In this document: piece by piece, positions 1 to 63,199 of the stretch | How the letters are laid out: every line of letters starts with the position of its first letter | Position numbering within the stretch: the first letter of the stretch is position 1 | Assembly: GCA_036630325.1 (NCBI GenBank) | Contig: CP142736.1 | Span: forward strand, 868,001 to 932,000 | Origin: Vairimorpha necatrix | Lineage: Eukaryota | DNA: 64,000 bases | Reading direction: 5' to 3' | Position numbers and translations under genes: made by a program | The notes under the pieces: model-generated | What the model was told of the DNA's origin: nothing | Seen by the model: the letters and a program-made list of their open reading frames with translations, nothing else | Database searches by the model: none

Positions 1-3000
1 TAAATACATTATTATTATATAACGTTTTTTTAGCAAATTTAATGTAAAAGTGAAGAATAAATGTATACGAACTAAGTTAAACCATATGGTTTTTACAACT
101 TAATCTACAATTAGACGATAAATATTGAATAAATAGAGCACAACGAAATGTGCGTTTTTCAAAATTAAGAACAAAATCCCCATGACTTTAATTTGGCTAG
201 ATCAAATTTTTGTATATAATACAGTATAGAGTTATAAAATCCGGTGATTATGTCATAATGTTCAAACCCCCTTTGTTTTTATCATATAAATTTACGAGTA
301 TTTGTATGCAAAATACTATAATATGTAGCAAAATATTTTTTTTATTTTGATTAAAAATTAGTACAATAATTTTAATTGATCAAATTACTGATATCAAATA
401 GTTTACTCATAACAAATTTGATCTTTGAATAGCGAAGAACTTCACGAAATTGTATCGCGCCCCAACAGAGCAAACAGCGTAATCACCTTCTTGAAGGTAC
501 ATAATATGGCTTTTAACGTTACACTATTAACAGCACTTACAATACTGTGTAATGCGCTTATAAATGTAATGTATTACGGGCATCCCGTATTCATAAATCT
601 ATAGTTCATTTAAACAAGTTCATCGGATAATAATTATGCTCTTGGTTGTTTATGTTTCTATCAATTTCTACAATTGTCGTTTAGTTTCATAAAATATCAA
701 GAAATATGTATTTATATCGATCTTTTGATTTGACTCGTAGACAAAATAAATATCTGTAATCGTATGAATATAAATTACTAAAAGAAGAAACATTTGCCTA
801 AAACTAGTACAAATCCTTCTAATAGATACCTTATATATAAGATTGACAAAATGGTTGTAATGTATAAACATATTTTAAACAACTTAATATAATTTTTTAT
901 AAAATCGACTCGATTTGGCTATTATTTAATCTATACAATAATAACTATGGTATTTTATTAATTAAAAGGATTGAATAAGGAATATATAGTAATAAATTGT
1001 TGTTTTCTATACCTTTGAAGAGAAGGTGTTGAATCTACATCGTATTATTATAAATTTTATTCATAAGGCAATTATATAATTCAGATTTATGAAATAAAGC
1101 TAAAAAGAATATTGTTTTTTGTTTGCTTCAAATTAATAGTAGATATATTTCTGTTCCTCATTGTTGAATATTAAAACATTAATAAATAAAGCCTTTAGAG
1201 GTTAAACGTCTTTTAAAGTTCCATCGTATATCTTATTGTGCTTAATGAACACTAATAACAATATTATTCAATTTTGTTCATCGCGTTTTGTATATGAACT
1301 TTGAAAAATAATTTAATCCAGAAATATTATTACGAGTGAAAAAAATTCTACATGGCTCGAAATTTTTTATTAACTTGGATTTTTTCCTATTAGTTTTTTA
1401 TCTATAAAAATACTACATACATCTTTTTTTTTAAACAATCAATTTAATTGAAAGATAAATAAAAGAAAATAATCTTTTTTACAGAATGTATTGCTTGTAT
1501 AAAAAAAAACTAGTGTATTCGTCTCGAAGCTTCTTTGCTGCAGCTGTCTTATTTATATAAATGTTTTTAACAATAAAAAAACACACAACAAATATTTATT
1601 TAGTTATTTGCGTTTCTGTTATCATTTATTTCTTATATTTTTGTATCTTAAGTATACTTGTAAATTCTTTTTTTTTGTCTTCTAAATTTCACGCATTAAT
1701 AAAATCATACAATTTTTAGTTCAATGTTCTGTATCCCGTTAATTTGTTTGAATCGATAATATGCATGCTGATCGTATTATTTTCGAAGTTAATACACTGT
1801 AAAATAAATTTAGTTTTAACACAAAAGCCAGAACCCAAGGCGATTGTTTTCAAATGGTTTAGTAAAAGTATTATATTTATACGTATTCTCTTATTGATAT
1901 CCAATTTTCTATTTTATTATATAAAATGAGGAATTGGCATGTATTAGTTTGGAGCGTTCAAGAACAATTTGACATTTGAACAGAATTAGACTAACAACAA
2001 CTTTAACATATATAGCAATTAAAAAAAAATTTGAGAAATCATATAATATGGAAATGTTTGAAATTATTACATAAATACATCAATATATGGTTGATTTTTA
2101 TCTAAAAAGCATATCATTTATAAAAATTTAGCAAATGTTTTCATTTAGAAGATTTTTGTTTAAGTATTAAATTGGATATTTTATATAATATCGTTGCTAA
2201 AATAAGATATTTTATTAAGGCATTCTCAAATCAACATTTCATTTATAATATATGCTAATCATGTGCCGCTTTTAGAATTTTATTGGTGTTTTTTTCTTTA
2301 CTTTAAAAAAAAAATTTAAAAATAATAAATTATTACACTAAACATCTCTTATAATTAAAGCGGTCGTCAAACCAAATGTTTGACAGAACACGCCGTTAAG
2401 TAGAATTTTCTTATAGTTTCACGACAATGCAAATTTATTTCATATCCGTTCCGCGGTATCATTTATTTGTTTTAACTCTTAACATAATTGTTGCAATGCA
2501 ATGTTTGGGCTCATAGTCTACAAAATAAAACAATCTCTAATTCTTCTTTATCTCTGTCGTGTGTTTTATTTTATTAGTAAGTAGACTTATAGTTCTTCTA
2601 CTTTCTGCTTACATATATTTCCTATCCTATTCTTATTTTCCATAAAGTTAGAAACACTCGTTATTTTTTTACTATACTTAATACAAGATGTTAGTTTCAA
2701 AAAAAGTAGAAATTAAAGTTTGCGTTATACTTCTCGTGTATTTATCACATTCCATCTAAAGTCAAAATAAATCATTTTTTGCCCGGAAAATGTTTTTGAT
2801 AAATATATTTACAAAAAGATCTTGTTTCGTAATAATTCCTTTTTCGGCTAGAAAACGTCGGTCTTGTTCAAAATTTCAATTTTCTCTTTTGTTATTACTT
2901 GGTATTGTCTAAATCTTATATCTAATCGATTCTTCGTTGAACGTGTCTCATTACATACTATATTTATGTACTTATTATTTATTAAAACCAAAATTATATT

Positions 3001-3859
3001 CAAAATATATATATATATATATACGTCAAGAATCGCCAATAAATATATATTTGTGTATAAAAGATAATTCACCAAATAATGATTAAACAAAAATTTAATT
3101 TCTATTTCATTTATTGATAATTTGTTTTAGGTATTTTATAGCTCTTGGTACAACTGTCCTCTATCAAATTCATAGATTCTTTAGAAAAACTAAGACGCTG
3201 AAATTAGTACCCGAATCAATTTACACAAAAAAGTTTAATGTTTTAATTTATATATGAACCAGAAATATTGCAATTGACAAATCAGATAATTCTCATATTT
3301 TGGAAAATAATTAGTTAAAAAGCCTCTTTATAATCGTCTTAAAATAGAATTGTACTTTAAAAATAGACAATTTAGTAATTTACTGATGACGCAATTTGAA
3401 CAATAACATGGACAATAAATTTTATATGAAAATTTAAAAAATAAAATCTTAGATTTTGTCAAACTTCTCAAGCCTAGCTTCATAACAATACTTAAAATGA
3501 CCTCATAAATTGGCCACAAGAAATTAGAGATTTTAAACTCACTTTGCACATTTAAAACACAAATAAATATAGAATTGGTTACAATAATTCATTGTCTCAT
3601 GTATTTTCAGCATAAAGTTAAATAATAACTTTTGGAAATATTGCTTACGAAAGGTTCATGAAAACGAAAAAAATTTCATAAATTTACATACGTTTATTGT
3701 TCAAATCTTGTTGTCTTAATTTTTTTATTTTTGCCAAGCATTTATGTAATATGTTTTTATTTATTTGTCGATAGTTTTAAGATTTTTTCATTTAAATTTT
3801 TATAAAATTTTTTTAAATTTTCTTTTAAATAAAAGCTTATATTAAATAAAAAACAATAT

Positions 3860-6240
3860 CAAAAGGCCTAGAATCCGAACTATTAGGATTTGTAATAAGC
3901 ACGCAAAGTAAAATTTTACCAAAATTATCTTTTATCTATAATTTAAATATATAAACCGATTGTAAAATTGGACTTCTTCTGCAAAATAGAAGTAAATATT
4001 TATTACATAAAATTAGGAGAATTTATGTGTATTCATTATCCATCTGATATCATGGATTTTTACCCATTAAAACATCTTCTGTGTTACTTATTAACCAACA
4101 ACTTCCTTATAATTGGATTTTGGTGTAGGGGAATATTTTTCATCTATACCTCAAATCGAATCCAAAGGTACCTCATAGCAAATATACTCGACTTACAGAA
4201 AGCAAATCTAAAAGAAACTCGGGGTCAAGCTAGCTAAATATCAAACATCATTTACATCTTAAACTGCAAATAAACCCCCGAATCACCAAATACGCATTAA
4301 AGTGGAACGCGTGGCAATAGGCCTTCAACTTATTTCGATCAGTTGAATTAAAATTTTTAGTATACGATGCACGAAACCTTCTATTGTTCTATCTTGTCTA
4401 GTATCTTGATTATTTTAATAAAACCTCAAATATAACCTCTTTGGGCTTATTGGGCCGTACTCAGACTTATATTTTGAACTAGAAGTTTTTTAAAAAAAAA
4501 TTACTATTTTTGTAATTAAAGGGCTCTATACTTTTGATGCTGGGCCAAACATGGCTGTATGCGACAGTTTTAATAATATTCTACATATTTTTGTGGTCTT
4601 TTAATCATCAGAATTGTTCAACTGCATCGTACATAAATAAACTTTTAAGTGTCCAGAGATATAAATTATTAATGTCCATTGGACGATCTTTAGTCTCTGA
4701 CACTATGCTTCCGGCTTATATATTGACCTCTTCTACCTTCTTTTTCTTTAAATTTATTTTTGAGGTATATAATATTTAAACGGCAGGAACTAGAATATGC
4801 AATAAATACTATTTAGCTTGAAAATAACATTCAAAGTATTTTCGTATATTTGAGATCGAATGTTTAAATTCATTGCAATTAGTGATATTGTATATTTTTT
4901 GTGCGCTGGTTATTTGGCTATAATAATTCTTAAACTAAAATAAAATTTTCGAAAAAATCTAGAAATTAAAATAATTTGCTAACATTATGATATTTTATCA
5001 ATAATAAGATTTATTTTAAAACGGCCTTTTTGAAAATTTCATTAATATTAAAGCAGCTTAGCGATATAGCGTCTAGATTTTTAAACAAATTTTTCAAATA
5101 TCTAAAAATTTCATCAAGTGAATTATTTAATAAAATTTTATCATTTTGACTAAAATCCATAAGATATTGATGTTTGAAAAAAATTATGAATATCTCAAAT
5201 CTTTCAACTATTTGAAATGCTTTCTCGAAAATATATAACCTTGCAGGGAGAGTGGTATAAAAATCGATTATTTTTAAACCATCATATTTATAAAGAAAAT
5301 GTGTAGATGTGGTGTATCTTTTTATAGCGTAAAAAATACATTCAAAAAAATCGAACTGGTACTTAATATCATTTGAGTAATCATCGTAAGAAATAGTATT
5401 CACTGCTTTCTTAATAATATTTGTATGATCTCCAAGAGATGCATAAAACAGAAATAACCTATTTCTTATTTTTCGTTTTTCAGTAGTATACTTTTTTAAG
5501 TCATTTTCTTCCATATCGTTAATACTGTAATTTTTTAGATTTTTCTTTTCATCTTCGATTTTCCAAGTACTAAGTTGGCTAAATAATTTTAATTTTAAGT
5601 ATTTGTAGTTCGATTCATTTTGAAAGTTATCACTTTCTAAAGTGGTCGTTATATTGTTCTTATCAAAGATTTGTGCTTGTAAATTATCATTGGAAGCTGA
5701 GGTAATAGATAAAGAACCAAAGTTTTTAGTTTTTTTTCTGGGAGAACTTTTATCACAAGTAGCACTTTCATCATTATTATTAAATTTTCTTTTTAATTTT
5801 AAGCCATCATTTTGCTTTTGAATATGTGTAAATGAACGTGTTTTGTTATTCGAAGATGTTGCTATAAGACATATTTTGAAAAAAATATATTGTAACATGT
5901 AAGGGCTCTTTTTCATTTTTGTTTGGTCTATAAAAAGTAGTAGCAGAATATATAATTTTAAAGCATATTGAAAGGTTCTTACGCGTTAACATGAAAGAAT
6001 AATAGTGAAAATAATTCTAACATGAAACGTATAAACTATAGCAGATAGAGGCATCCATTAATTTTGATCTATTATTCAAAAAAATACTATTGAATTCACT
6101 TAACCTGTATGGAAGGTCGAGATAGAAGCAGAATTTAGCAGAAGTTTTGTGAATTGATTCTAGTCTGCGGTACGATACAACCTCAGAAGAAGATTTAACA
6201 AAAGTATCCCACGAAATTTATTTCTAAATTTATTAGATAT
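3860..6240. repeat. Segmental duplication unit A (gene copy 1 plus flanks), paralogous to ~8930-11280
   Basis: Collinear similarity across the CDS, ~300 bp upstream and ~1.1 kb downstream. Includes a 41-bp identical block (4161-4201 = 9230-9270). Boundaries approximate. Confidence 0.8.
5011..5898 (-). CDS. MLQY-family putative secreted protein, copy 1 (~295 aa)
   Basis: ORF 5011..5916. Start reassigned to the ATG at 5898 because it follows a CCC motif (agCCCttacATG) and aligns with the paralog starts. Hydrophobic N-terminus MLQYIFFKICLIATS, basic patch SPRKKTK, family motifs DDYSNDIKYQFDFF and IVERFEIF. Confidence 0.85.
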   Translation of the reverse strand: MLQYIFFKICLIATSSNNKTRSFTHIQKQNDGLKLKRKFNNNDESATCDKSSPRKKTKNFGSLSITSASNDNLQAQIFDKNNITTTLESDNFQNESNYKYLKLKLFSQLSTWKIEDEKKNLKNYSINDMEENDLKKYTTEKRKIRNRLFLFYASLGDHTNIIKKAVNTISYDDYSNDIKYQFDFFECIFYAIKRYTTSTHFLYKYDGLKIIDFYTTLPARLYIFEKAFQIVERFEIFIIFFKHQYLMDFSQNDKILLNNSLDEIFRYLKNLFKNLDAISLSCFNINEIFKKAVLK

Positions 6241-36810: not shown

Positions 36811-37286
36811 TCAAAAATTTGTAATTTTTTTTGATGAAGATGAATGGATTAAAAAACATGTGCAAATAAATATCAGAAGATATATATTAACACAACTTAA
36901 AATTTTAAGATGGGAAGTATATGATTCTATGCGTATGGCTGATGGTAAAACAAAAAAATAAAGGGGAAGAAGTTACAGAAAAAAAAATATATACAGATGT
37001 ATAGAAACATTTGAAAGGTTATAATGTCATACACTGAATTGATCTTAGTCTCATTACAAAAAAAACGAAAATGCACAAATAGATAACAATATAATATTAA
37101 TATTTTCTATGGTAAAAAATCTAAATAAGAAATAAATGACACTCATAAAAAGCGACAGTTTTAATGATTTAATATATGAAATTAAATATTATTTGACATT
37201 ATAAAAACAACCTTTTCAGATTAAGATAAAATTTTTTGTCACATATTTAAGTTATATTTTTGTTTTTGCATGATTTTTTTCCCACT

Positions 37287-40200
37287 TAAACATTTATTCT
37301 AGAATAGGGGTTATAAATAATTATTATTTCACTCAACATCCCCCTCATTCAAAATAATCCTCTACTATTAGCTTAAGTTGCGAGCCATGTCGCTTTATAG
37401 TTTTATTATGGACCTTAACGTTATAAGAATTATTTCCTAAAATATTAATAATTATACCTTGCGATTCAAATCTAGGTTTTCCCTTTGTTAAATCGGTTTC
37501 TCTTCTAATTATAACACTATCTCCCTCTTTAAAAATAAATTCAGCTCCTCTTTTCTTCTGTCGTTGGTTGAATTTTATGATTTCTTCGAATTGTCTTAGT
37601 TTAATCTCCTGAGCTCTCTTAGGATTACATGCTTCATCTGGCGACATGCCAAGAACGGAGTGTCTAACATTATTGTATACATCTAGTACACGCTTAGTTT
37701 TTGTCTTCAAATTTCCAAAACTATTATCTTTATATATACCTTCCTGTATTGTCCTATTAAATCTTTCTATTCTTCCGTTTGATTGGTGATGAAAAGGGGA
37801 AATATAATGAATTTGAACATTATTTCTCGTTGCCCATTGTTTTACCTCAATACTCAAATTTTCTTTTGACTGATCAAGAATTAGTATTTTAATCTTTATG
37901 TCATTATAAACTTCATCAAAAAATTTCACTAGCTTATTACTCTCTCTAGTAGTAATGACTTTAGCCCACGCTTTCCTTGTAAAATAGTCGATCGCCGTAA
38001 TTTTATAGCTTCCATTGATTGGTCCTATAATATCGGCAGCTACCTTTTCGCCAGGTTCGTATGCTGTCACAAATATGAATTTTTTTCCTCTTTGTGGATT
38101 GTACATCTTACATCTTAGACATTTATTAATTTCCGTTTTTACCATATGCGACATATCTTTCCAATGATATTTTTCCTTAATTCATTTTCAATAACTTTTG
38201 ATCCTCTGTGAACTAACTCTATATGTTTATTCCTTATGATAGACCTTTTTTCTTCTTCGCTAAATTCAATCATATTTATTTCATCCGTATTTAACTCATT
38301 AAGATAAGATCTTGACAAACAATCGACGTGAGGAATATCTGTCCCCTTTTTGTACTCGATCGTGTAATTATACTCACTCAATTTATCAAGCCACCTTTGT
38401 ATACGTAACGATTTTATTTCGCCTTTATTTAGGACCTCTAGAGCTTTGGGATCAGTTATTACTTTAGACTCATTTCCATATAAAAAATATCTAAAATTTT
38501 CCATTCCCCATAGGACACCCAAGCATTCTTTCTCGCTGATACTGTAATTTCTTTCCGCTGGAACCAATCTTCTAGAAGCGTACGCGATTGGGTACACATG
38601 CCCTTCATTTTCTTGTGACAAGATCGCTCCCAGACCAGAGTCACATGCATCCGTTTCTAATATGTAAGGTTTACTAAAATCTGGCTGTTTAAGCACACTG
38701 CTCGACAATACAATTTTCTTTAACGTGTTAAAAGCAGCATCCTGTTCCTTCCCCCAATTAAATTGAATATCATTTTTTGTAAGATCATATAAACATCCTC
38801 CGATTTTTGAACAATTAGGAATAAATTTTTTATAATAATTAATAAGTCCCAGAAATTCTTGCAGTGATTTTTTATTGATTGGTCTTTTCATATTGTTAAT
38901 TGCTTGGTCCCGTGTAATTTTTGGCTTAATTTAGTTATATGCTATTAAATGTCCCAAAAGGTAAGTTCTTTAACCTTATATATTGTTTTATCCTCATTAA
39001 TACCTAAGTTATAGCTTTTAAGCTTTGTTATGATCTTCTCATAATTAAAATCACGTTATTCCTCGTTTTCTCCAAAAACCAGTATGTCATCGCCATACAC
39101 GAAGCAACTTTTCCCCATTTTTTCTTGTAAAACATCATCTATAAATCTTTGAAAAATTGCCGGAGCATTTTTAAACCCCATTGGCATAACGTTCCATTCT
39201 ATAATAGGTGCTTAAATCTGAAAGCGGTCTTATATCTATCTTTTCCCGCTAATTCTATACAAAAAAATGCATCTTTTAAATCCAATTTACTAAAATATTT
39301 TTTCCCACGAAGCCCGTATAAAAGCTTATCAATGTGTGGTAAGGAGTAATTATCTAGCTCTACCAATTTGTTTAACGAAACTAAATTTGTAGTAACTCTT
39401 ATAGAACCATCTGGTTTAATTACTGGTCTTAAATTATTCAACCACGTTGATTTTGATTTTCTTATGTAATTTTTACTTAGTAGTTCTTTGATAGATTTTT
39501 CCACTCCTTCTTCTAACTTTTTTGGTAGTGTATAGACCTTTTCAACAATTTTTTCTCCTTTTATCGTATTTATTTCACAAATTCTATTGCTAGACACCCT
39601 TTTCAATATTTCTTGTAATGTCTTTTTTCCTACAAGTATTTTAAATTTTTCCACCTTAGGGAATATAAAAAATTTAGAACGATAACTTTTACCACCATAA
39701 GAGAAATCTAATATCACATATTCTGTAATCCCGAATCTTTCTTCTAAACATGTTAAAAAATATATTTCCTCTGTACTTCTATAAATTTTTAAAGTTAGTT
39801 CAGAAGCAGCCTTTTTACTCATAAAATTATAGTAAGAACCCGAGTCAAAAGTTACATTAATTTTTTCATTATAAACATATATTAAATCTTCTTTATTGTT
39901 AATAAAGTTTGCATCCAACATTTCGCCTTCTTGGTGGATCTCATTTATCCTTTTATACTGTAGTTGTTTACCATCAGTTCTTTTCTTCTTCGCAAAACAG
40001 TCTTTAGCAATATGCCCATCCTTGTGGCAAAAATAACATGAATATCTTTTGTTGATGTTATTGGAGGCAGGTTGTCTTATTTTTGTTATATCGTTATTTT
40101 CCTTTTCCATTTCATCAATTATTTCAAGGAATTCTTTATTAATTTCATATTGCCCTGTTAATACCATTTTTATAGCCTTATATCTTGGTAGAATTCCATT

Positions 40201-40616
40201 TCTTATTATCTTCCTTTTACCCGTATTTCTGATATTTTCCTTTAGACATTTCTTTTCTACATCTTTGATAAATTCCACAATACTTTGGTTTTCTTTTTGT
40301 TTTAAAGTATATAATTCGTACAATCCAGTACCGCAGTCAAATTCCGTTTCTGCCAACTCTTTCCACATTTCAAATGTTAATGAACATTTCCGTTTCTCCT
40401 TCATTAACATACTATGCCAATCTAGTATCTCAATGTTGGCTTTATGAATAAAATAATCAATTTTTTCCTCATTTGATAATTTATTAAAACTGGAAAGTAA
40501 AGAAGCTCTTTGTAGCTCCTGCAAGATATTTCACTACTAATCTCTGTTTTCATATTCTCCACCATAAACATTTATTCTAGAATAGGGGCTATAAATAATT
40601 ATTATTTCACTCAACA
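37287..40616 (-). mobile_element. Ty3/gypsy LTR retrotransposon with 52-bp LTRs, frameshifted (3330 bp)
   Basis: Direct repeats 37287-37338 and 40565-40616 (51/52 identical); 5-bp TSD CCACT (37282-37286, 40617-40621); PBS TGGTGGAGAAT abuts the 5' LTR; PPT GAGGGGGA abuts the 3' LTR. Confidence 0.93.
37345..40571 (-). pseudogene. Gag-PR-RT-RNaseH-IN polyprotein broken into several frames
   Basis: ORF 39199..40524 has CYFCHKDGHIAKDC, FDSGS protease and SKLDLKDAF. YGDD lies at ~39085-39100, RNase H LETDACDSGLGA in 38139..38891, and integrase ADIIGP / HHQSNGRIERFN in 37345..38154. Confidence 0.9.
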
Positions 40617-42115
40617 CCACTAAATTTAATAACAATATTGGTATCATAATTTGAATTATTTTTGTGAGTTTCAAACAAATCTTTGCTTTTCTGGTCACAT
40701 GAGGTTGAGTATTGAACTAAAAACGGTTTTCTTTTTTAAAAAATTATAAATATTTTATAGATTAGAATTGATTATCTGGCCTAAAATAATTTATATTTTA
40801 GTACTGATTACGTGGAACCATTTTATTTCGAGCAATAACATTGTTTATTTAAAATCTATAATAGACTGTATTATCTACATGTCATTTTTGCCTTTTTTTA
40901 GAAAATATTTGTTTTATTTTTAGCTGAAACTAATTTCAAAGAAAGAATGGAACAAAAAAAACACAATTAAAAAACAAGACCAAAAAGAAAACAAAGGACT
41001 TATAGATAACATCATTTGAATTAGTAATAAATAAAGATTAGAGAGGTTTTTACTACCAAGAAGCTTACTCTGGTTCCACAAAACACTAATTCAAATTAAT
41101 ATTAAGTTTTCATATTTAATACTTGTGTTTTTTCTCTTCTTTAAATTAAAATTTCAGATATAAATGATAAAAATTTTTTAAATTCAAAATACAGGAATAA
41201 CAAAATAAAAAATGTCAACGAACATGTGTTGTAAACATTCTACAAATAATGCCAAACGTATTTTTAGATTTATAATTTAAGTAAAGTATTATTGTGCTTT
41301 GATTTCTTACATCTATGTAATTTGAAATACCCACAGTTAATGTTTGTTCAAAAAGCCATTTAAAGAGTACATGTTATTCATAATTTTTCAGTTATGATTG
41401 TAGTGTTATGATTACATGTATCAAACACCACTTAAAGCTTCTCTATTAATTGTACAAACGGCTTCAGAAAAAGAGCCGAATAAAAAATATAAATTTTGGA
41501 AAGTATGAAATGTTATTATATACGACTTAGAATGCTGTATTTTCGATAAAAATTCCATCACGTGTTTTCTGTAAGATGTTTGGTTATTAAGCCTGTATTT
41601 TTCTTTAAAAAAGCTTATTTTTTACAAAAAAATAAAAGATAAAAATATATTGAGATTTCTCAAGTTTATTAGCACATAGATTATCTTGTTGCAAGGAATT
41701 TTGCTCCTCAAATTATGGATATTGCAATATTGATTATGTTTTCAAGCTTCGTCATACTTTCATTCTCTTAAAATGCGTTATTTTTTAACTGTTACACTCT
41801 TAACTAGTTAGTTACAATTTTATACAATTCTTTATCAACAGCATCTTCCTGATATATTCTATCTTTGATCTAAGCTATAAAAAAACGGATTAGATACATA
41901 AAACTGAAACAAATATTAGCTGTTATATGAAAAAAAAACCTTTATATAAATAGACATTAAGGTATTATACGAATTTACCAGTGTTAAACATTATTTATGA
42001 CATAAATTTAAAATTTTCAATTTTATTGACATACATTTTATAACAGCTTTTGAAAGGTCTATTTAAAATTAGAGCCAACTTTAAATATTTATATATTAAA
42101 AAAAATCTCCTCCCC

Positions 42116-43264
42116 ATGAAAATAAATATTCAAAATATCATAAATTTGTATTTCAAAATGTTCAATTTAACACTATCTCGAGATCAGGACAAAACGGAGA
42201 ATCAGGCTTTATCTCCATATTCCTTCCTTCAAGTACTAGGTCTCCTCGCCAATGGCACAGATGACGAAACAAGCAATAAATTTATTGGTAAATTGGGCTT
42301 TGAACCAAATATCAACGATTTTAATATAAATTCTAATAAAATTAACGAGATCTTGACTAAAAAAAGAAATAGAGATGATCTGTTTGTGACGTGTGATTAT
42401 ATCGTGACGAATTATTTATTTCATAGTGATAAATTTATAATTAACGAAGATTTTAAGACACTTATCTCAAATTTTTACAATATAAAAATCTCATCATATA
42501 ATCCTAAGAAAGTGATTGATGATTATAAAAATTTTTATCATTATATCACCAATGGCACTAATATAATTTTTCAACATTTTATAACTTCTTTTGGCCCAGA
42601 CATGTGTTTATTAAAAGAAAACAATTTCTATTTAAAACAAGAATGGAGCACAAATTTTGACTTTTTCCGTGTTGAAGATTTTACAACTTATGCTGGAAAA
42701 GTTAAACAAGATATGATGTATAATTATATAGCAAAAAAGTACAATTTTTATGAAGACGAAAAAATAATTGCTGTAAAAATGCTTTATAAAAATTCTGATT
42801 CATTCTTCCTGGCCGTCATGCCTAAAAAGATTGAGGATTGGGACGAAGTAACTAAAAAGATTTGTTCTGAAAACGAACTAAATTGCTTAATATCGCGAAT
42901 GGAATACGGAAATGTAAATTTAACCTTTCCTAAATTTAGATTCGAGTATGAGGTCGATTTTATCACATATTCAAAAGATCTGGGGATTGATAGTATGTTG
43001 AATTCATTAAAACTAGACAAACTGAAGACGGACTTCAAATACGAAAATTTAGAAATTAAACAAAACGTACTTATTGATGTATATGAATTTGGATTTGTAA
43101 CTCATTTAGTGTCTAATAAATCAGTAAAAGAAAAAACTGAAGCAAACAATTTCCGTGTTTTGGAATTTAATAAACCCTTTTTATGGTTCGTAATAAGACA
43201 AGACGATAATTTCACTTGTAGTCTACCGATTTTCATGGGAAAATTTATTGGACCCAAAAAATAA
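42116..43264 (+). CDS. Serpin-family protein (~382 aa)
   Basis: Motifs ALSPYSFLQVLGLLANG, LTFPKFRFEYE, QNVLIDVYEFG, EFNKPFLWFV and PIFMGKFIGP. Start reassigned to the ATG at 42116 (ctCCCCATG). Confidence 0.9.
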   Translation: MKINIQNIINLYFKMFNLTLSRDQDKTENQALSPYSFLQVLGLLANGTDDETSNKFIGKLGFEPNINDFNINSNKINEILTKKRNRDDLFVTCDYIVTNYLFHSDKFIINEDFKTLISNFYNIKISSYNPKKVIDDYKNFYHYITNGTNIIFQHFITSFGPDMCLLKENNFYLKQEWSTNFDFFRVEDFTTYAGKVKQDMMYNYIAKKYNFYEDEKIIAVKMLYKNSDSFFLAVMPKKIEDWDEVTKKICSENELNCLISRMEYGNVNLTFPKFRFEYEVDFITYSKDLGIDSMLNSLKLDKLKTDFKYENLEIKQNVLIDVYEFGFVTHLVSNKSVKEKTEANNFRVLEFNKPFLWFVIRQDDNFTCSLPIFMGKFIGPKK

Positions 43265-57606: not shown

Positions 57607-59665
57607 TATATTTTAATAAAACATGACAAACAATTAAATAAATATTGTAAAATTTTCAATTTTTATATTGTACTTCCAAAGCAAACTTTTTAACTATTAT
57701 ATTTAGTTCCAAAATTTTTTTTTGGGTGTGTTGTTATTCCTAAAGTCGAAAAAACATTTAGTTGATTTTTACTTTCTATTTTTTTTAATCACAGTCAGTA
57801 TAGTTAAATATATTGAAGTTAAAAATATTAATTGTGTTTGTTTACAAAAATTATTTTTTACTTTATATGAACAAACGGCCATTTGACAAATCCTTCCAAA
57901 GATTTTTAACAGCATTGATAATAATGTATTTATGCTAAAATATTTCCTCAAAGGTTTTCAGCAGATCAAATCTCGAGTTTTGGTTATTTACACATTTTGT
58001 TGTTTCTAAAAAAGTCTTAAAATTTTTATTATTTTAGATAATTCATAATATTCATTTTTAGTTTGAATTATAATTCTTTCTAATTCCATAATCAAGCACA
58101 TTTTTATTATATAGAAAAATTTTACTCGCATCAATTAATATTTTTATAAAGTCCTACCTTCTTTTTTATTTTGATCTTTGTTGCTGCAATTATATGCATA
58201 TGTTTCTCAAAAATATCACAATTCTTAATCAATCCTTTAAAATCAACTTTAAATATTGAGTGAAGGCTTTGATAATTTATTTAATTAATAAATATACAGC
58301 TGATTTTTTGTGATAGTAAATACTCCTAATAATTTTCAATATTTTATCATTTTTTTTCAATTAGCTTGAGATTACAAAAAATTTCGTTTTTGTTGCCTTG
58401 ATTGATTTCCATTAATGTTACAATTCTCATAAGTTCCTTAAATGTTGATTTATTAACAAGTAATTCTAAATTATTTTCTACGATCTTACATTATATTTTT
58501 GGCGATATGAAAAATTCAGGCATAGTTTAAATAATTGCATACTATGAAATCATTTTCATCAATTGTTTGGAAAAAAATGATTCATCCCTTCGGTTTTATT
58601 TTCTGTATTATTATTATTGTGTATTCGTTCTTAATTTTTGATGCACCATATACTTCGTTTACATCAACAAAATTAAATAATTTATGTGTTTCAAATTTTT
58701 TTTCGATATTTATTCCTCGCAGAATATATTTTCACATGCTTCTCAAAAATATTATCTAGGTTAAGTTCGCTAGATCGATATTTTAAAAATTAAAACTTTC
58801 TTCGATTGCATAATAAAAAAATTTAAAAGAGAACCTTTATTTTTAAAAAATTTAAATCTTCATTATTATCATTGAGAAAATACAGTTATACAAAGCACAT
58901 TTTTCCTTCTAAATCATTTTATATATATTTTATTGCTTTTTTCCCTTTATCTTTTTTGTTATCGATAATATTTTTACGGGAAAATGAATGGTCTTGGTTT
59001 TTTTTTCATAAACAAGTATTTTTGAAGGGCTCAATTATTCATTATACAAAAGTATTCATTTAATTTTTAGAGGCTTTCGTAATTTCTACGTTTTCTTATG
59101 TAATTACTTGCTTTTTAATTAAAATAATTTTATTTATTATTATTAAATTTGATATAATCTATGTTGATATTCTTTTTTATTACTATGTACTGCATTGTTC
59201 TAACGGTTCTTTGTTTTTATAAGGGGGATACCTTCTCCTATATTTGTCTTCTTTTTTTTATCAATAAAATTATTAAAAATTACCATATGATTCTAACTAA
59301 TAATACTAAAGCATGACAATATAAGATTTATGTTGTATATATATGTTTGAATATAAATACTTGTTACAAAGTTTTTTCAGAATCCTAGTAGTTCTTTTTC
59401 TCATATATTTACGCAGGAATCAAATTTTTATAATTTTTTAAATAGAGGAGATCGAAAACCAAATAATTATTTTTTTCCAGTTCCCTTAACCTTCTCAGCA
59501 TTTGGAAGTTAGTGCTTGATAATTTATATTGTTTATCGTTACTTTCAATAAAAATGCAGAATAGTGTATTTATATTTTAAAAATGACTTTGAAGTTCTTG
59601 AAAAATTTGAGAAAATTTATATTTTAGGTTAAGTAATTTTTTACATATTTTTATTTTTCAACTTA

Positions 59666-62600
59666 TGTTATAATCAGTAATAATATTAAACCCTAATTAT
59701 GTTAAGCACTTATATGGAGGCGATACCTAAAGAAGAGTTCACAAGAGAGGACTGTGGCCAAGTGGTCAGAAAGATGTTACAGGAGTTAGAGCGTATATTG
59801 TATGAATTGGATTTGAGAGATGTGGATAGAGAGAAATGGAAGAGTGAGCTGTTCAAGTTGGCTTCGATGGATTTAAAAGATTTTATTGTGAGAAATATCA
59901 AAAAGGAAGAAAATATTGAAGGAATAAGGAAGAAGCTATTGTTAAGGATTAAGGAAGTAGAGGAGGAAGAAAAGATATATGAGGAAATGAGAAAAATTAT
60001 TTCTAGGACTATAAATGAAGAAATTAGTAGAGAACAACCAAGACAAAAATCGAGAGTACCGAGATGCTTCTATTGTGATAGACAAGGGCATAGGGTGTTT
60101 GAATGCAGACTGAAGATTAATAGAGATAATTATTATAAAAAGACTAACAAGGATAACAGTTGCAAAATGGAAGTAGGTAGTGAATCAGAGTCAAGTCAGG
60201 AGCGAGATTTTAGAAGATCAAAAAGAGGACTTAGAGTCAAATTTGAGAAAAATCAAAAAGAATATGCCGTTAAAGAGGAGAGTAAGAGAATCAGATTAAA
60301 TTTAGATAAGTATGCTAAGAGTTTTGGAGAGGTTTTTAAGTTAGGAAAAGAGGAGATAAAATATTGTAAACTGGAAAAATGTAAAATTAATACTGAAGCG
60401 GGTATGAAGGTATTTAAAAAGGGACAAATGGTTCCGCAGGCGTTGATAAAAGATACAGAGCTACATCTAGAAGATTTATTAAAAAGGAAAGTGATAAGAG
60501 AGTCAAATTCAAGTTGGAGGAATCCTATAAGGTCAATCAGAAAGCCAAATGGTGAGATAAGACTGGTTAGTAATTTGATGGCATTGAACGATATTGTAGA
60601 AAAGGACGAGTATAGATTGTCTAACATAAGAGATGTTGTAAGAGCTACACAAGGTGCAAAATATATGACGGTTTTCGACTTAAAAGAGGCCTTCTATAGT
60701 ATTGAGATAGAGGAGGAGGATAAACATAAGACGGCGTTTGATTTTAATGGCAAGGTTTATGAATGGAACTCTATGGTTATGGGATATAAGAATAGCCCGC
60801 AGATATTGCAGAGAATTATGGATAGGATTTTTAGAGATATGAAAGGCAAAGGAGTAGAGGTGTATATGGACGATATTGTGTTGTACAGCCGAACGATAGG
60901 AGAACACGAGCAATTAGTGAAAAGGGTATTAAATAGACTGAAGGAAAACAATATGAAGCTGAATGCAAATAAAGTTCAGTTTTGTCAACGGGAAGTTAAA
61001 TTATTGGGAGTCACTTTAAATGGAGAAGATATAATACCGTCAGAGATAAAGAAAAATGAAGCCCTAGAGTTTCCGATACCAACATGCGTGTCAGATGTAA
61101 GAAGATTTTTAGGAATGACGGGTTGGTTCAGAGATTTTATTAAGAATTACGCTGGATTGACAGTTAGGTTGACAGATAGTTTAAAAGGGAAGAATGATAA
61201 TTGGAAGTGGACGGATGATATGAAAAACGAGTTTAATAATTTAAAAGAAGTATTGAAAGGCCTAGGAAAGCTGCAAATAGCAGACTATGATAAAGAATTT
61301 TTGTTGAGGACTGACGCTAGTAATGTAGGCATGGGCGCAGTACTGTTACAGAAAAATAATCAAGGAGAATGGGTGCCAGTACAGTGGGCGTCTAAGAAGT
61401 TTACCGTTACGGAAGTTAATTATGGTATATCAGAAAAAGAAATGTACGCAGTTTTTTGGGGCGTTAAAAAGTTTGAATATGAATTAAGAGGTAGGAAATT
61501 TAGAATAGAAACTGATCATAAAGCGTTGGGCGAAATAAGAAACAAGCCCGACTTCAAGAATGCTAGAATTAATAGATGGGTCGAGAAGATTCAGGAATTT
61601 GATTTCGTGATAGAATATAGAACTCCAGAAAATATGGTCGTAGCCGATGCGCTAAGTAGGGTATATACAAAAGAAAAAGATGCAAAGAATAAGAGAAATG
61701 AAACACGCCGTGATAGACAAAAAGAAGGGAAAAGAAATAAGCATGTAAAAATTGTAGAAGGTAAAGAATACTGGGTATTTGATAGTGGTAGAGAAGGCGA
61801 GATGCCTTTGGAACAAGACAGAGAGAGATTAATAATGGATTGTCATGTAAATTTGAGCCACAGAAGCAGAACAACGGTATATTATGAGTTGAGGAAACAG
61901 TATTATTGGCCAGGAATTAAGGATCAGATCGAAAAGGTCCTTAAGAATTGCGAGACTTGTCAGATTTTTAATAGAAAAACGAGTGGCGGTACTGATTTAG
62001 TGAACACGACAAGATATTTAGAGAAGGTTGGCTTAGATTTAATAGAATTTAGGGATGAGAAAGCGTTTATTGTTTTGGCAGTTGATTACTTTACAAGGAG
62101 ATTATGGGGCAGAGTATTGAAGAGCAAGCACGCATCTGGAATTGCCGAATTTATCAAGGATTTGTGTAAACAGGGTAGAAAACCAGAGGAAATCATTACG
62201 GATAATGGTAAAGAGTTTTGCAACGAAAAAGTTACCGAGCTATGTAGAAATTTGGATATTAGTCATAGAAAGGTCAGCGTTGAGTCGCACAGAAGTAATG
62301 GAAGAGTAGAAAGAGTTATTAGAACTGTAAGAGATAGTATTTTAAAGAGCCAAAAAGAGAAATTCGAGAACAAGGTTTATGAAGCTATTGAGAAATATAA
62401 TTTAAGTTTTCATGCTGGTATTAAGTGCACGCCAGTAGAAGCTTTAACCGATAATACAGGAAATGTTAGTATGGAGAATAGTCCAGAGGGAAAGTATGCG
62501 CAACAGTTTAAAAGTTGGTTTAGAGAAAAGTTCAAAAGGAACCAGATAGTTAGGGTTGCCAAGAATGAGAATTTAAAGGGATGTAGTAAGTATAGTAAGG

Positions 62601-62808
62601 GTCGATTTTTAGACATGGGAAGAGTGATTGAGCTATGTCCAGGGGATTCATATATAGTGAGATTAGAGAATGGAAGGTTGGTGAAAAAAAGGCATTATGA
62701 TCTTAAGGGTGTAGGGGATTTAAAGTATGTTGAAGGAGACTAACCGTCTGGAGGGGGGATGTTATAATCAGTAATAATATTAAACCCTAATTATGTTAAG
62801 CACTTATA
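59666..62808 (+). mobile_element. Intact Ty3/gypsy LTR retrotransposon with 49-bp LTRs (3143 bp)
   Basis: Identical 49-bp direct repeats 59666-59714 and 62760-62808; 5-bp TSD ACTTA (59661-59665, 62809-62813); PBS TGGAGGCG at 59715; PPT GGAGGGGGGA just before 62760. Confidence 0.95.
59699..62743 (+). CDS. Single-ORF Gag-RT-RNaseH-integrase polyprotein (1014 aa), no evident protease
   Basis: CFYCDRQGHRVFEC knuckle; RT VFDLKEAF, MGYKNSP, YMDD; RNase H LRTDAS, ETDHKAL; integrase HVNLSH...CETC, VGLDL, ITDNGKEF, SNGRVERV. Confidence 0.95.
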   Translation: MLSTYMEAIPKEEFTREDCGQVVRKMLQELERILYELDLRDVDREKWKSELFKLASMDLKDFIVRNIKKEENIEGIRKKLLLRIKEVEEEEKIYEEMRKIISRTINEEISREQPRQKSRVPRCFYCDRQGHRVFECRLKINRDNYYKKTNKDNSCKMEVGSESESSQERDFRRSKRGLRVKFEKNQKEYAVKEESKRIRLNLDKYAKSFGEVFKLGKEEIKYCKLEKCKINTEAGMKVFKKGQMVPQALIKDTELHLEDLLKRKVIRESNSSWRNPIRSIRKPNGEIRLVSNLMALNDIVEKDEYRLSNIRDVVRATQGAKYMTVFDLKEAFYSIEIEEEDKHKTAFDFNGKVYEWNSMVMGYKNSPQILQRIMDRIFRDMKGKGVEVYMDDIVLYSRTIGEHEQLVKRVLNRLKENNMKLNANKVQFCQREVKLLGVTLNGEDIIPSEIKKNEALEFPIPTCVSDVRRFLGMTGWFRDFIKNYAGLTVRLTDSLKGKNDNWKWTDDMKNEFNNLKEVLKGLGKLQIADYDKEFLLRTDASNVGMGAVLLQKNNQGEWVPVQWASKKFTVTEVNYGISEKEMYAVFWGVKKFEYELRGRKFRIETDHKALGEIRNKPDFKNARINRWVEKIQEFDFVIEYRTPENMVVADALSRVYTKEKDAKNKRNETRRDRQKEGKRNKHVKIVEGKEYWVFDSGREGEMPLEQDRERLIMDCHVNLSHRSRTTVYYELRKQYYWPGIKDQIEKVLKNCETCQIFNRKTSGGTDLVNTTRYLEKVGLDLIEFRDEKAFIVLAVDYFTRRLWGRVLKSKHASGIAEFIKDLCKQGRKPEEIITDNGKEFCNEKVTELCRNLDISHRKVSVESHRSNGRVERVIRTVRDSILKSQKEKFENKVYEAIEKYNLSFHAGIKCTPVEALTDNTGNVSMENSPEGKYAQQFKSWFREKFKRNQIVRVAKNENLKGCSKYSKGRFLDMGRVIELCPGDSYIVRLENGRLVKKRHYDLKGVGDLKYVEGD

Positions 62809-63199
62809 ACTTATAAAATAATTTATTCTTATTTTTTTATATCTTGTTTTCAAAAAAAAATATAAAAATATAGCACAAATACGATATCAATTTATTGTTT
62901 ATTACAAAGTTAAATTTTTTTCTGAAATTAGATCTTTTTTGTATAGAATATAATAACATTTTTATGATCTATTTTACTTTTATAAATGGCATGAATTAAA
63001 TCTAAGATTTTTTTTTGTACCTAAAAAAACTTAGTAGAGTAAAATATTACTCCTTGGTCTGCCTTGCTCAAAATCAATAAAACAATTTACCTTTAACGTT
63101 TTAGAGTCTTTTCTAAGTATCTTCAATTTTTGAGCAAGTTTTAAAAATTTACATATACAATTTTAACAACATTACCTGTATAAAACTAATTTTACTGCA

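Follow-up and report, generated by a model that had tools for sequence, protein, structure and literature searches.

Can a long terminal repeat (LTR) retrotransposon persist without a protease of its own? The protease is counted among the universal core genes of LTR retrotransposons and retroviruses, and reverse transcription and integration are held to depend on maturation by cleavage. The question is raised by a locus in the microsporidian Vairimorpha necatrix. We analysed 64,000 nucleotides of contig CP142736.1 (positions 868,001 to 932,000 of the forward strand; assembly GCA_036630325.1). We call this whole 64-kb stretch the window and use its numbering throughout. A complete LTR retrotransposon of 3143 bp lies at 59666-62808, and an original prediction, made from the sequence alone, described its product as a Gag-Pol polyprotein with no aspartic protease domain. 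That description stands: Pfam, motif scans, hhalign, and AlphaFold with Foldseek were all negative in the interval where a protease would be expected. The retropepsin is absent from this element, not merely diverged, and its absence is clade-wide and derived, rather than a deletion in one copy. The lineage consists of microsporidian LTR retrotransposons of Ty3/gypsy-type descent, with reverse transcriptase (RT), RNase H, and integrase, that have lost the retropepsin.

The features of the element, all on the plus strand, are as follows (aa, amino acids; ORF, open reading frame):

59661..59665, plus: left target-site duplication, ACTTA, read from the sequence; repeated immediately after the 3' LTR
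59666..59714, plus: 5' LTR, 49 bp, TG...TA, identical to 62760-62808
59715..59727, plus: primer-binding-site-like stretch TGGAGGCGATACC, directly 3' of the LTR; putative, from its position and TGG start
59699..62743, plus: single polyprotein ORF, 1014 aa, unbroken, from the ORF list
59714..60061, plus: Gag-like helical part, aa 6-121, from AlphaFold helices
60065..60106, plus: CCHC zinc knuckle CFYCDRQGHRVFEC, aa 123-136, from the motif and Pfam zf-CCHC
60107..60298, plus: charged linker, aa 137-200, which occupies the protease position of cousins
60299..61282, plus: reverse transcriptase, aa 201-528, including the N-terminal leader and the connection (RVT_1, E 3.6e-36)
61283..61600, plus: RNase H, aa 529-634 (RT_RNaseH, E 2.8e-32)
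61781..61789, plus: D-S-G, aa 695-697, in the N-terminal extension of the integrase, from the motif scan
61814..62740, plus: integrase, aa 706-1014, made up of an HHCC zinc domain, a D,D-35-E core, and a C-terminal domain
62750..62759, plus: polypurine tract GGAGGGGGGA abutting the 3' LTR, read from the sequence; function suggested by position
62760..62808, plus: 3' LTR, 49 bp, from the repeat match
62809..62813, plus: right target-site duplication, ACTTA, read from the sequence

All of the catalytic motifs are intact: the YMDD box, the DEDD boxes of RNase H, HHCC, and D,D-35-E. Pfam places RVT_1 at aa 280-440, RT_RNaseH at aa 529-634, Integrase_H2C2 at aa 706-759 (E 3.7e-14), and rve at aa 779-857 (E 6.2e-10). 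Within these domains, the RT has FDLK at aa 326 and YMDD at aa 389, the RNase H has TDAS at aa 538 and TDHK at aa 605, and the integrase has HHCC from aa 716 to C754, followed by D780, D835, and E871. The original prediction had also reported identical LTRs, an unbroken ORF, and a Gag of about 140 aa, and each of these agrees with what we find. The Gag-like part measures about 136 aa, knuckle included. The two LTRs are 100% identical (2 matches, versus 0 expected from shuffles). Because they are only 49 bp long, their identity dates the insertion weakly.

The interval between the zinc knuckle and reverse transcriptase

The stretch flagged as lacking a protease, 60100-60400, corresponds to aa 135-234. 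It had been described as about 70-90 charged residues between the knuckle and RT, which is about right. The linker proper (aa 137-200) has 64 residues, of which 47% are D, E, K, or R and 24% are hydrophobic, and a family-conserved RT leader, LDKYAKSFGEVF, begins directly after it, at about aa 201. From the knuckle it is 91 aa to the first invariant block of RT (C228) and 143 aa to the Pfam start of RVT_1. Since a gap of 91 aa is near the minimal size of a retropepsin, shortage of room is no proof of absence.

At E ≤ 10, Pfam found no aspartic-protease family in the 1014-aa protein. As predicted, the window protein has no D[ST]G motif and no I/L-x-G-x-D motif (of the ILGxD type) between the knuckle and RT. 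Its sole D[ST]G is D695-S-G in WVFDSGREG, about 10 aa before the zinc domain of the integrase. (The D-S-G is kept at the aligned site in the relatives P0002, P0003, P0004, and P0008, and there is no room around it for a protease fold.)

Pfam by itself is too insensitive for this question, so we added profile-profile and structure tests. Of 30 related polyproteins, 19 have a Pfam protease family at E ≤ 0.01. Among the proteases missed at this threshold are those with a canonical DTG in P0103 and P0111, and the one with DSG in the window's own cousin P0178. These missed proteases were detected by profile comparison and fold prediction.

In the profile comparison, we used hhalign to align a profile of the linker, built from the 7 closest members of the family, with a protease profile built from 14 protease-bearing cousins, in which the D and G of the active site are invariant. 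This gave a probability of 0.03% and an E value of 0.95, so no relationship was detected, while the control (two halves of the protease set) gave a probability of 98.6% and an E value of 7e-16.

The fold predictions lead to the same result. AlphaFold modelled aa 148-200 with low confidence (pLDDT 31-45) and with two 3-residue strands only; there is no beta domain. In a Foldseek search with the modelled aa 1-300 against PDB, there were 0 matches at E ≤ 0.001, and the best rows touch the RT fingers alone. As a control, we modelled a protease-bearing cousin from the same window (39199-40524, minus strand; 14-row alignment). Its model has a beta-rich domain at aa 213-310 (pLDDT 73-91), which gave 53 PDB matches at E ≤ 0.001. 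The matches include foamy-virus protease-RT (3e-9), Ddi1, and the proteases of the immunodeficiency viruses HIV-1 and FIV, of Mason-Pfizer monkey virus (MPMV), and of equine infectious anaemia virus (EIAV). (The structures 7ksf and 7o24 are among the Foldseek rows of these searches.) Thus the search for a divergent retropepsin in this segment found none by hhalign or by AlphaFold and Foldseek, with positive controls for both.

Relatives and copies

Is this a peculiarity of one copy? Using the whole protein as the query, we found 104 proteins at E ≤ 1e-30, and the closest 38 are 43-72% identical to it (best local alignment). The precomputed family lists assign a protease family to 0 of these 38, and they do carry the RT, RNase H, and integrase families. 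Four of the 38 start at or after the N-terminus of RT and are uninformative for a motif scan. Upstream of the RT YxDD box, 37 of the 38 have no D[ST]G, and the exception lies within an S/D-rich stretch. Between the knuckle and RT, 34 of the 38 have no ILGxD-like motif. The regular expression for ILGxD gave 4 hits, 2 of them in the interval (P0198 at aa 192 and P0208 at aa 229), and neither of these is accompanied by D[ST]G.

With the N-terminal 300 aa as the query, the full-length relatives are 949-1019 aa long and their layout is unchanged. For the 7 relatives that were analysed first, Pfam found no protease family at E ≤ 10 among the 25 of 29 matched families that were listed; each of the 4 unlisted families matched one of the proteins, at E > 0.66. 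Another 8 members of the clade have no protease family at E ≤ 10 either. Named members without a protease come from V. ceranae (the cluster of P0001, with 31 members), V. necatrix, Nosema granulosis, and Enteropsectra breve. An all-against-all comparison added more distant protease-less relatives (P0009, P0012, P0019, P0034, P0069, and P0027, the last from Nematocida sp. AWRm77); Pfam gives no protease family for any of these at E ≤ 10. Many of the closest relatives are on contigs of 3.0-3.2 kb, which is the length of one element. In the protease-less proteins, the spacer between the knuckle and RT is 21-82 aa long, plus one of 167 aa that is rich in K and E (in P0009), compared with 96-191 aa in the protease-bearing cousins.

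Two observations on the database records of this family are worth giving. First, P0193 (911 aa), a member of the family, is filed at NCBI under a metagenome-assembled genome of Clostridium sp.; it is probably from a eukaryotic contig that was misbinned. Second, public records of the family carry misleading names, such as "krab-a domain-containing protein."

To place these proteins, we considered a wide set of 128,519 hits, among which the nearest relatives all have gypsy-type domains. The window protein is nested among protease-bearing polyproteins of the gypsy type, and the outgroup, P0156, is a chromodomain-bearing element with Ty3_capsid. We built two trees. A quick tree of RT, RNase H, and integrase had 36 rows and 769 columns (2 of 38 rows were dropped). 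In this tree, the protease-less rows (13 of 36) form one clade, and the well-supported group that contains it otherwise consists of protease-bearing rows. A more careful tree of RT and RNase H had 30 rows and 433 columns (11 of 41 rows were dropped). Here the protease-less rows (16 of 30) fall on one side of a branch with support of 82/23; the support is 99/97 for 15 rows. Their sister is the protease-bearing pair P0028 and P0172 (95/89). This tree calls for a single change between having and not having the protease, as do 82% of the bootstrap trees, for which the 5-95% range is 1-2 changes. Since every outgroup has a protease, the direction of change is loss, and the distribution of the protease-less rows fits one or two such events.

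Copies of the element were examined in contigs from two runs (X1 and X2). Two distinct upstream flanks join the element in run X2, at 59664 and at 59666, which is the LTR edge. The depth of the element's contigs in run X2 is 94-6115, and the two flank bins with any cover have 21.4 and 2.4; contig depth is a poor measure. The element is present in multiple copies at several sites. (Another joint in run X2, 59444>62854, was disregarded: its shorter side has 21 letters, and it mismatches the element ends.) Contigs that span the interval from the knuckle to RT are collinear with the window. We saw no near-identical copies that bear a protease, either in these contigs or among the 38 closest relatives.

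The copies have diverged under constraint. The copies differ by 84 variants, and 40 of these were classed by their effect on the protein: 20 are synonymous, versus 10.6 expected (p = 0.0012). Just 2 of the 40 are stop codons, both on one decayed copy, and some copies have 1-nt deletions. At 59718, the window has A, while all of the X1 contig depth and most of the X2 contig depth have G. This position lies in the second codon after the ATG at 59714 and within the primer-binding-site-like stretch, and it changes the start to MEA, versus MGA in relatives. Across the family, mean identity to the window copy is highest for RNase H (80%), followed by RT (69%) and the Gag-like part (32%), and it is lowest for the linker (27%).

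Use of the polyprotein

What does the element have in place of a protease? A disordered, highly charged linker of variable length is predicted to stand where the protease was. Upstream of it, AlphaFold gives the Gag-like part four helices (aa 21-39, 44-54, 57-66, and 73-112) at pLDDT 82-89, with the knuckle modelled fairly confidently (aa 1-300; 16-row alignment). The Pfam match to zf-CCHC at aa 122-137 is weak (E 0.056), and relatives reach 1.4e-4. A sequence search of PDB gave weak matches of the knuckle to the nucleocapsid knuckles of Ty3 and HIV (E 0.12-0.5), and these were the sole sequence hits in PDB. Pfam has no capsid family in the Gag-like part, and Foldseek found 0 matches to its fold at E ≤ 0.001. 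A wide VIA search with the helical aa 21-112 returned generic helical rows only (Z ≤ 6.0). Rows for the C-terminal domain of capsid, from Arc and Rous sarcoma virus (RSV), had Z of 5.0-5.4, which is not above background. Leads from the protein atlas to Gag/CCHC clusters scored 0.81-0.87, under the 0.9 mark. A crude heptad count gave no sign of a coiled coil in helix 73-112 (453 of 2000 shuffles scored at least as high).

We tentatively favour a mode in which the polyprotein is used uncut, as a tethered whole, so that an own protease is unneeded. Binding and chaperoning of the element's RNA would fall to the small helical Gag-like part and the zinc knuckle, and RT, RNase H, and integrase would stay tethered to the Gag-like part through the flexible linker. 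The replication complex might then be more like a ribonucleoprotein than a matured capsid. The behaviour of the linker is consistent with a tether: it is the least conserved part of the protein, its length varies eightfold across the clade (21-167 aa), and it is modelled as disordered. With conservation this low, the linker shows no conserved cleavage site. In some retroviruses, RT fused to integrase is active, as is protease-RT that has not been cleaved.

Several points weigh against an uncut polyprotein. In the Ty3/gypsy, Ty1, and Tf1 systems that have been studied, protease mutants fail to transpose. With a single ORF, there would be one Gag part for each Pol, which is an awkward ratio for building a capsid. 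A protease could be supplied in trans, since the window also has LTR elements that bear one. A disordered linker would also be the easiest target for a cellular protease. Finally, the stop codons in 2 of the 40 variants imply that some copies are dead, and the copy in the window may be slightly impaired by the A at 59718.

Consider the cellular protease first. A microsporidian enzyme would cut the exposed linker, and perhaps also the basic spacer between RNase H and integrase, and maturation would be outsourced to the host. Disordered, charged stretches are generally easy substrates for proteases, and the linker is both disordered and charged. It has one semi-conserved feature, the basic patch FRRSKRGLRVK (family consensus YRRSK.G.R.K), and there is a second basic stretch of low complexity upstream of the integrase. 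But there is no conserved cleavage site in a linker that averages 27% identity and ranges from 21 to 167 aa, and the basic patch is equally explicable as a signal for nuclear import or RNA binding. We consider recruitment of a cellular protease to be realistic, if somewhat unlikely.

Alternatively, the clade could be partly non-autonomous and borrow its protease in trans from protease-bearing LTR retrotransposons in the same genome. Two such elements are in the window (20839-23651 and, on the minus strand, 37277-40616), and Nematocida has both kinds, the protease-less P0027 and the protease-bearing P0123. However, both neighbours are damaged: one is frameshifted and the other is without RT. 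Also, in BLASTP comparisons, the Gag of our element shares the knuckle alone with its protease-bearing neighbour, which does not suggest co-assembly. No conserved cleavage site is visible for a borrowed enzyme either. Across genera, the clade's own RT, RNase H, and integrase have stayed under constraint, which is unusual for a dependent element. We regard supply in trans as unlikely.

We think it very improbable that the element is a dead relic or a one-off derivative with an in-frame deletion. That would account for the stop codons and 1-nt deletions in some copies, and for the difference between the window copy and most other copies at 59718. But the same architecture is found in 38 database clusters at 43-72% identity, many of them on contigs of 3.0-3.2 kb. 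Also, the ORF, the catalytic motifs, the target duplication, and the LTRs of the window copy are intact, and the differences among copies are synonymous in excess.

A cryptic or relocated protease, either a fold in aa 137-227 that has diverged too far or an activity around the DSG at aa 695, is barely credible: the 91-aa block is near the minimal retropepsin size, Pfam missed three proteases (P0103, P0111, and P0178) at E ≤ 0.01, and the DSG recurs in several relatives, but the profile and fold tests that found Pfam-missed proteases elsewhere found nothing in aa 137-227, the final ~27 aa of this interval are the RT leader that is common to the family, the linker's composition (47% charged and 24% hydrophobic) differs from that of the cousins' proteases (21-30% and 29-46%), and the DSG is ~10 aa from the zinc domain of the integrase, with no space for a fold.

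We looked by eye for a second, Gag-only product and saw no slippery site or 2A-like peptide in 60040-60400. It is possible, though we are doubtful, that the clade is autonomous and long-lived (from Nematocida to Nosema and Vairimorpha) without any proteolytic maturation, as an uncut fusion of Gag, knuckle, RT, RNase H, and integrase. If this is true, then these would be the first retrovirus-like elements that are independent of a protease, with a natural minimal design in a 3.1-kb genome with 49-bp LTRs. Whichever explanation holds (enzymes that are active while fused, recruitment of a cellular protease, or stable dependence on another element), a conserved, multicopy clade without the protease makes the requirement for cleavage directly testable. 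There is a practical implication as well: annotation pipelines that require a protease would class such elements as incomplete.

Compact layout, neighbouring elements, and known systems

The element is compact. There are just 16 non-coding bases between the LTRs, and the stop codon is 6 bases 5' of the polypurine tract. Besides the first in-frame ATG at 59699, a second in-frame ATG at 59714 aligns with the start residue of relatives and is an alternative start. It is formed by the final base of the LTR and the TG that opens the primer-binding-site-like stretch. Relatives often start with ...HMA, ...YMGA, or MA.., which suggests, from these termini, that many of them have the same overlap of the start codon with the LTR and primer site. 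The protease-bearing neighbour has the same start arrangement (TTTA followed by TGGTGGAG, at 40555-40616 on the minus strand). N-myristoylation was considered as an explanation for the MGA start that relatives conserve. We rejected it, since the residues that follow misfit the usual pattern; the bases of MGA also coincide with the primer-binding-site-like stretch. ARAGORN found no tRNA genes in the 64-kb window. The compaction of microsporidian genomes thus extends to mobile elements: 3.1 kb, LTRs of 49 bp, and a start codon that spans the LTR end and the primer-binding site. The LTR also has a CCC motif (59690-59692), 6 bases upstream of the ATG at 59699. A passage in PMC4072689 reports a GGG motif preceding a transposon's start codon. 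A tiny LTR may rely on a minimal promoter signal of the host.

The window is AT-rich (23-35% GC per 2 kb) and has other mobile elements. The LTR element at 20839-23651 (2813 bp) has LTRs of 272 bp that are 100% identical, and an open Gag-protease frame. Its protease is canonical (LIDTGAT ... ILGNEF), but RT and RNase H are missing and the integrase is divided among three frames. With a protease and no RT, it is a mirror image of the main element. A database search at E ≤ 0.001 found no relatives of P0179, its Gag-protease-integrase protein. The LTR element at 37277-40616 (minus strand) is decayed and frameshifted. It has short LTRs (a 62-nt repeat at 92%, or ~52 bp by eye), a polypurine tract, GAGGGGGA, and TGGTGGAG after the 5' LTR. 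Its coding sequence is split among ORFs: one for a CCHC knuckle, a DSG protease, and the beginning of RT, the next for RNase H, and another for integrase. The DSG protease was missed by Pfam at E ≤ 0.01 and was confirmed by fold prediction.

Another element, at 16052-18783, has a 574-aa ORF (16425-18149) in which an HHCC zinc domain and the core of an integrase are the only domains. It is flanked by terminal inverted repeats, of which one pair of arms (16104-16210 and 18645-18751) is 107 nt long and 100% identical. These features suggest a cut-and-paste DNA transposon whose integrase is gypsy-like, possibly similar to the Ginger-type elements. The window also has a 404-aa ORF at 42050-43264 with a full-length serpin domain (E 5.6e-34).

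How does the main element compare with known systems? It shares a number of features with the Ty3/gypsy elements (Metaviridae, such as Ty3 of yeast). It has LTRs, a target duplication of 5 bp, a primer-binding-site-like stretch that starts with TGG, and a polypurine tract. It has RT, RNase H, and integrase in that order, with an HHCC zinc domain and an upstream CCHC knuckle, and it matches the Pfam families RT_RNaseH, RT_RNaseH_2, and Integrase_H2C2. The structure of Ty3 RT is matched weakly by the RT in the window and more strongly by the cousin. Unlike those elements, it has no retropepsin, its Gag is ~136 aa with no capsid family detected, a single ORF covers Gag and Pol, and the 49-bp LTRs enclose only 16 non-coding bases. 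Nor is it like the non-autonomous large retrotransposon derivatives (LARD) or terminal-repeat retrotransposons in miniature (TRIM), since its 1014-aa ORF has intact RT, RNase H, and integrase.

Tf1 of Schizosaccharomyces pombe also has a single Gag-Pol ORF without a frameshift, so that its parts are translated equally; it carries and needs a protease, and our clade has none. Foamy-virus protease-RT and the retroviral RT-integrase fusions are precedents for enzymes that work while fused to a neighbouring domain. Unlike our element, those retroviruses encode an active protease, and other sites are still cut. By analogy, rather than by membership, the favoured mode would resemble the ribonucleoprotein replication of non-LTR (LINE-type) elements, in which an RNA-binding knuckle module is combined with enzymes and there is no proteolytic step. 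Unlike LINE-type elements, ours has LTRs and an integrase of the Asp-Asp-Glu (DDE) type and presumably makes double-stranded cDNA, and nothing suggests target-primed reverse transcription.

In the literature that we covered, which did not extend to Xu et al. 2006 or to figure 1A and the supplement of Parisot et al. 2014, we found no description of an autonomous Ty3/gypsy lineage without a protease. In their main text, Parisot et al. 2014 (PMC4202319) describe groups of Ty3/gypsy elements in microsporidia that have a single ORF; the word "protease" appears 0 times there. Going by that text, our element belongs with these microsporidia-specific, single-polyprotein groups, and a member of its clade might already be drawn in figure 1A or be among the supplementary consensus sequences. 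The Nbr elements of Nosema bombycis are described by Williams et al. 2008 (PMC2474625), in a passage that cites Xu et al. 2006, as having Gag, protease, RT, RNase H, and integrase in "nearly all" cases. As described there, the Nbr elements and ours are both microsporidian and both encode one polyprotein, with a protease in Nbr and without one in ours. The nearest named relatives of our element are from the same hosts as the microsporidian groups: Vairimorpha, Nosema, and Enteropsectra.

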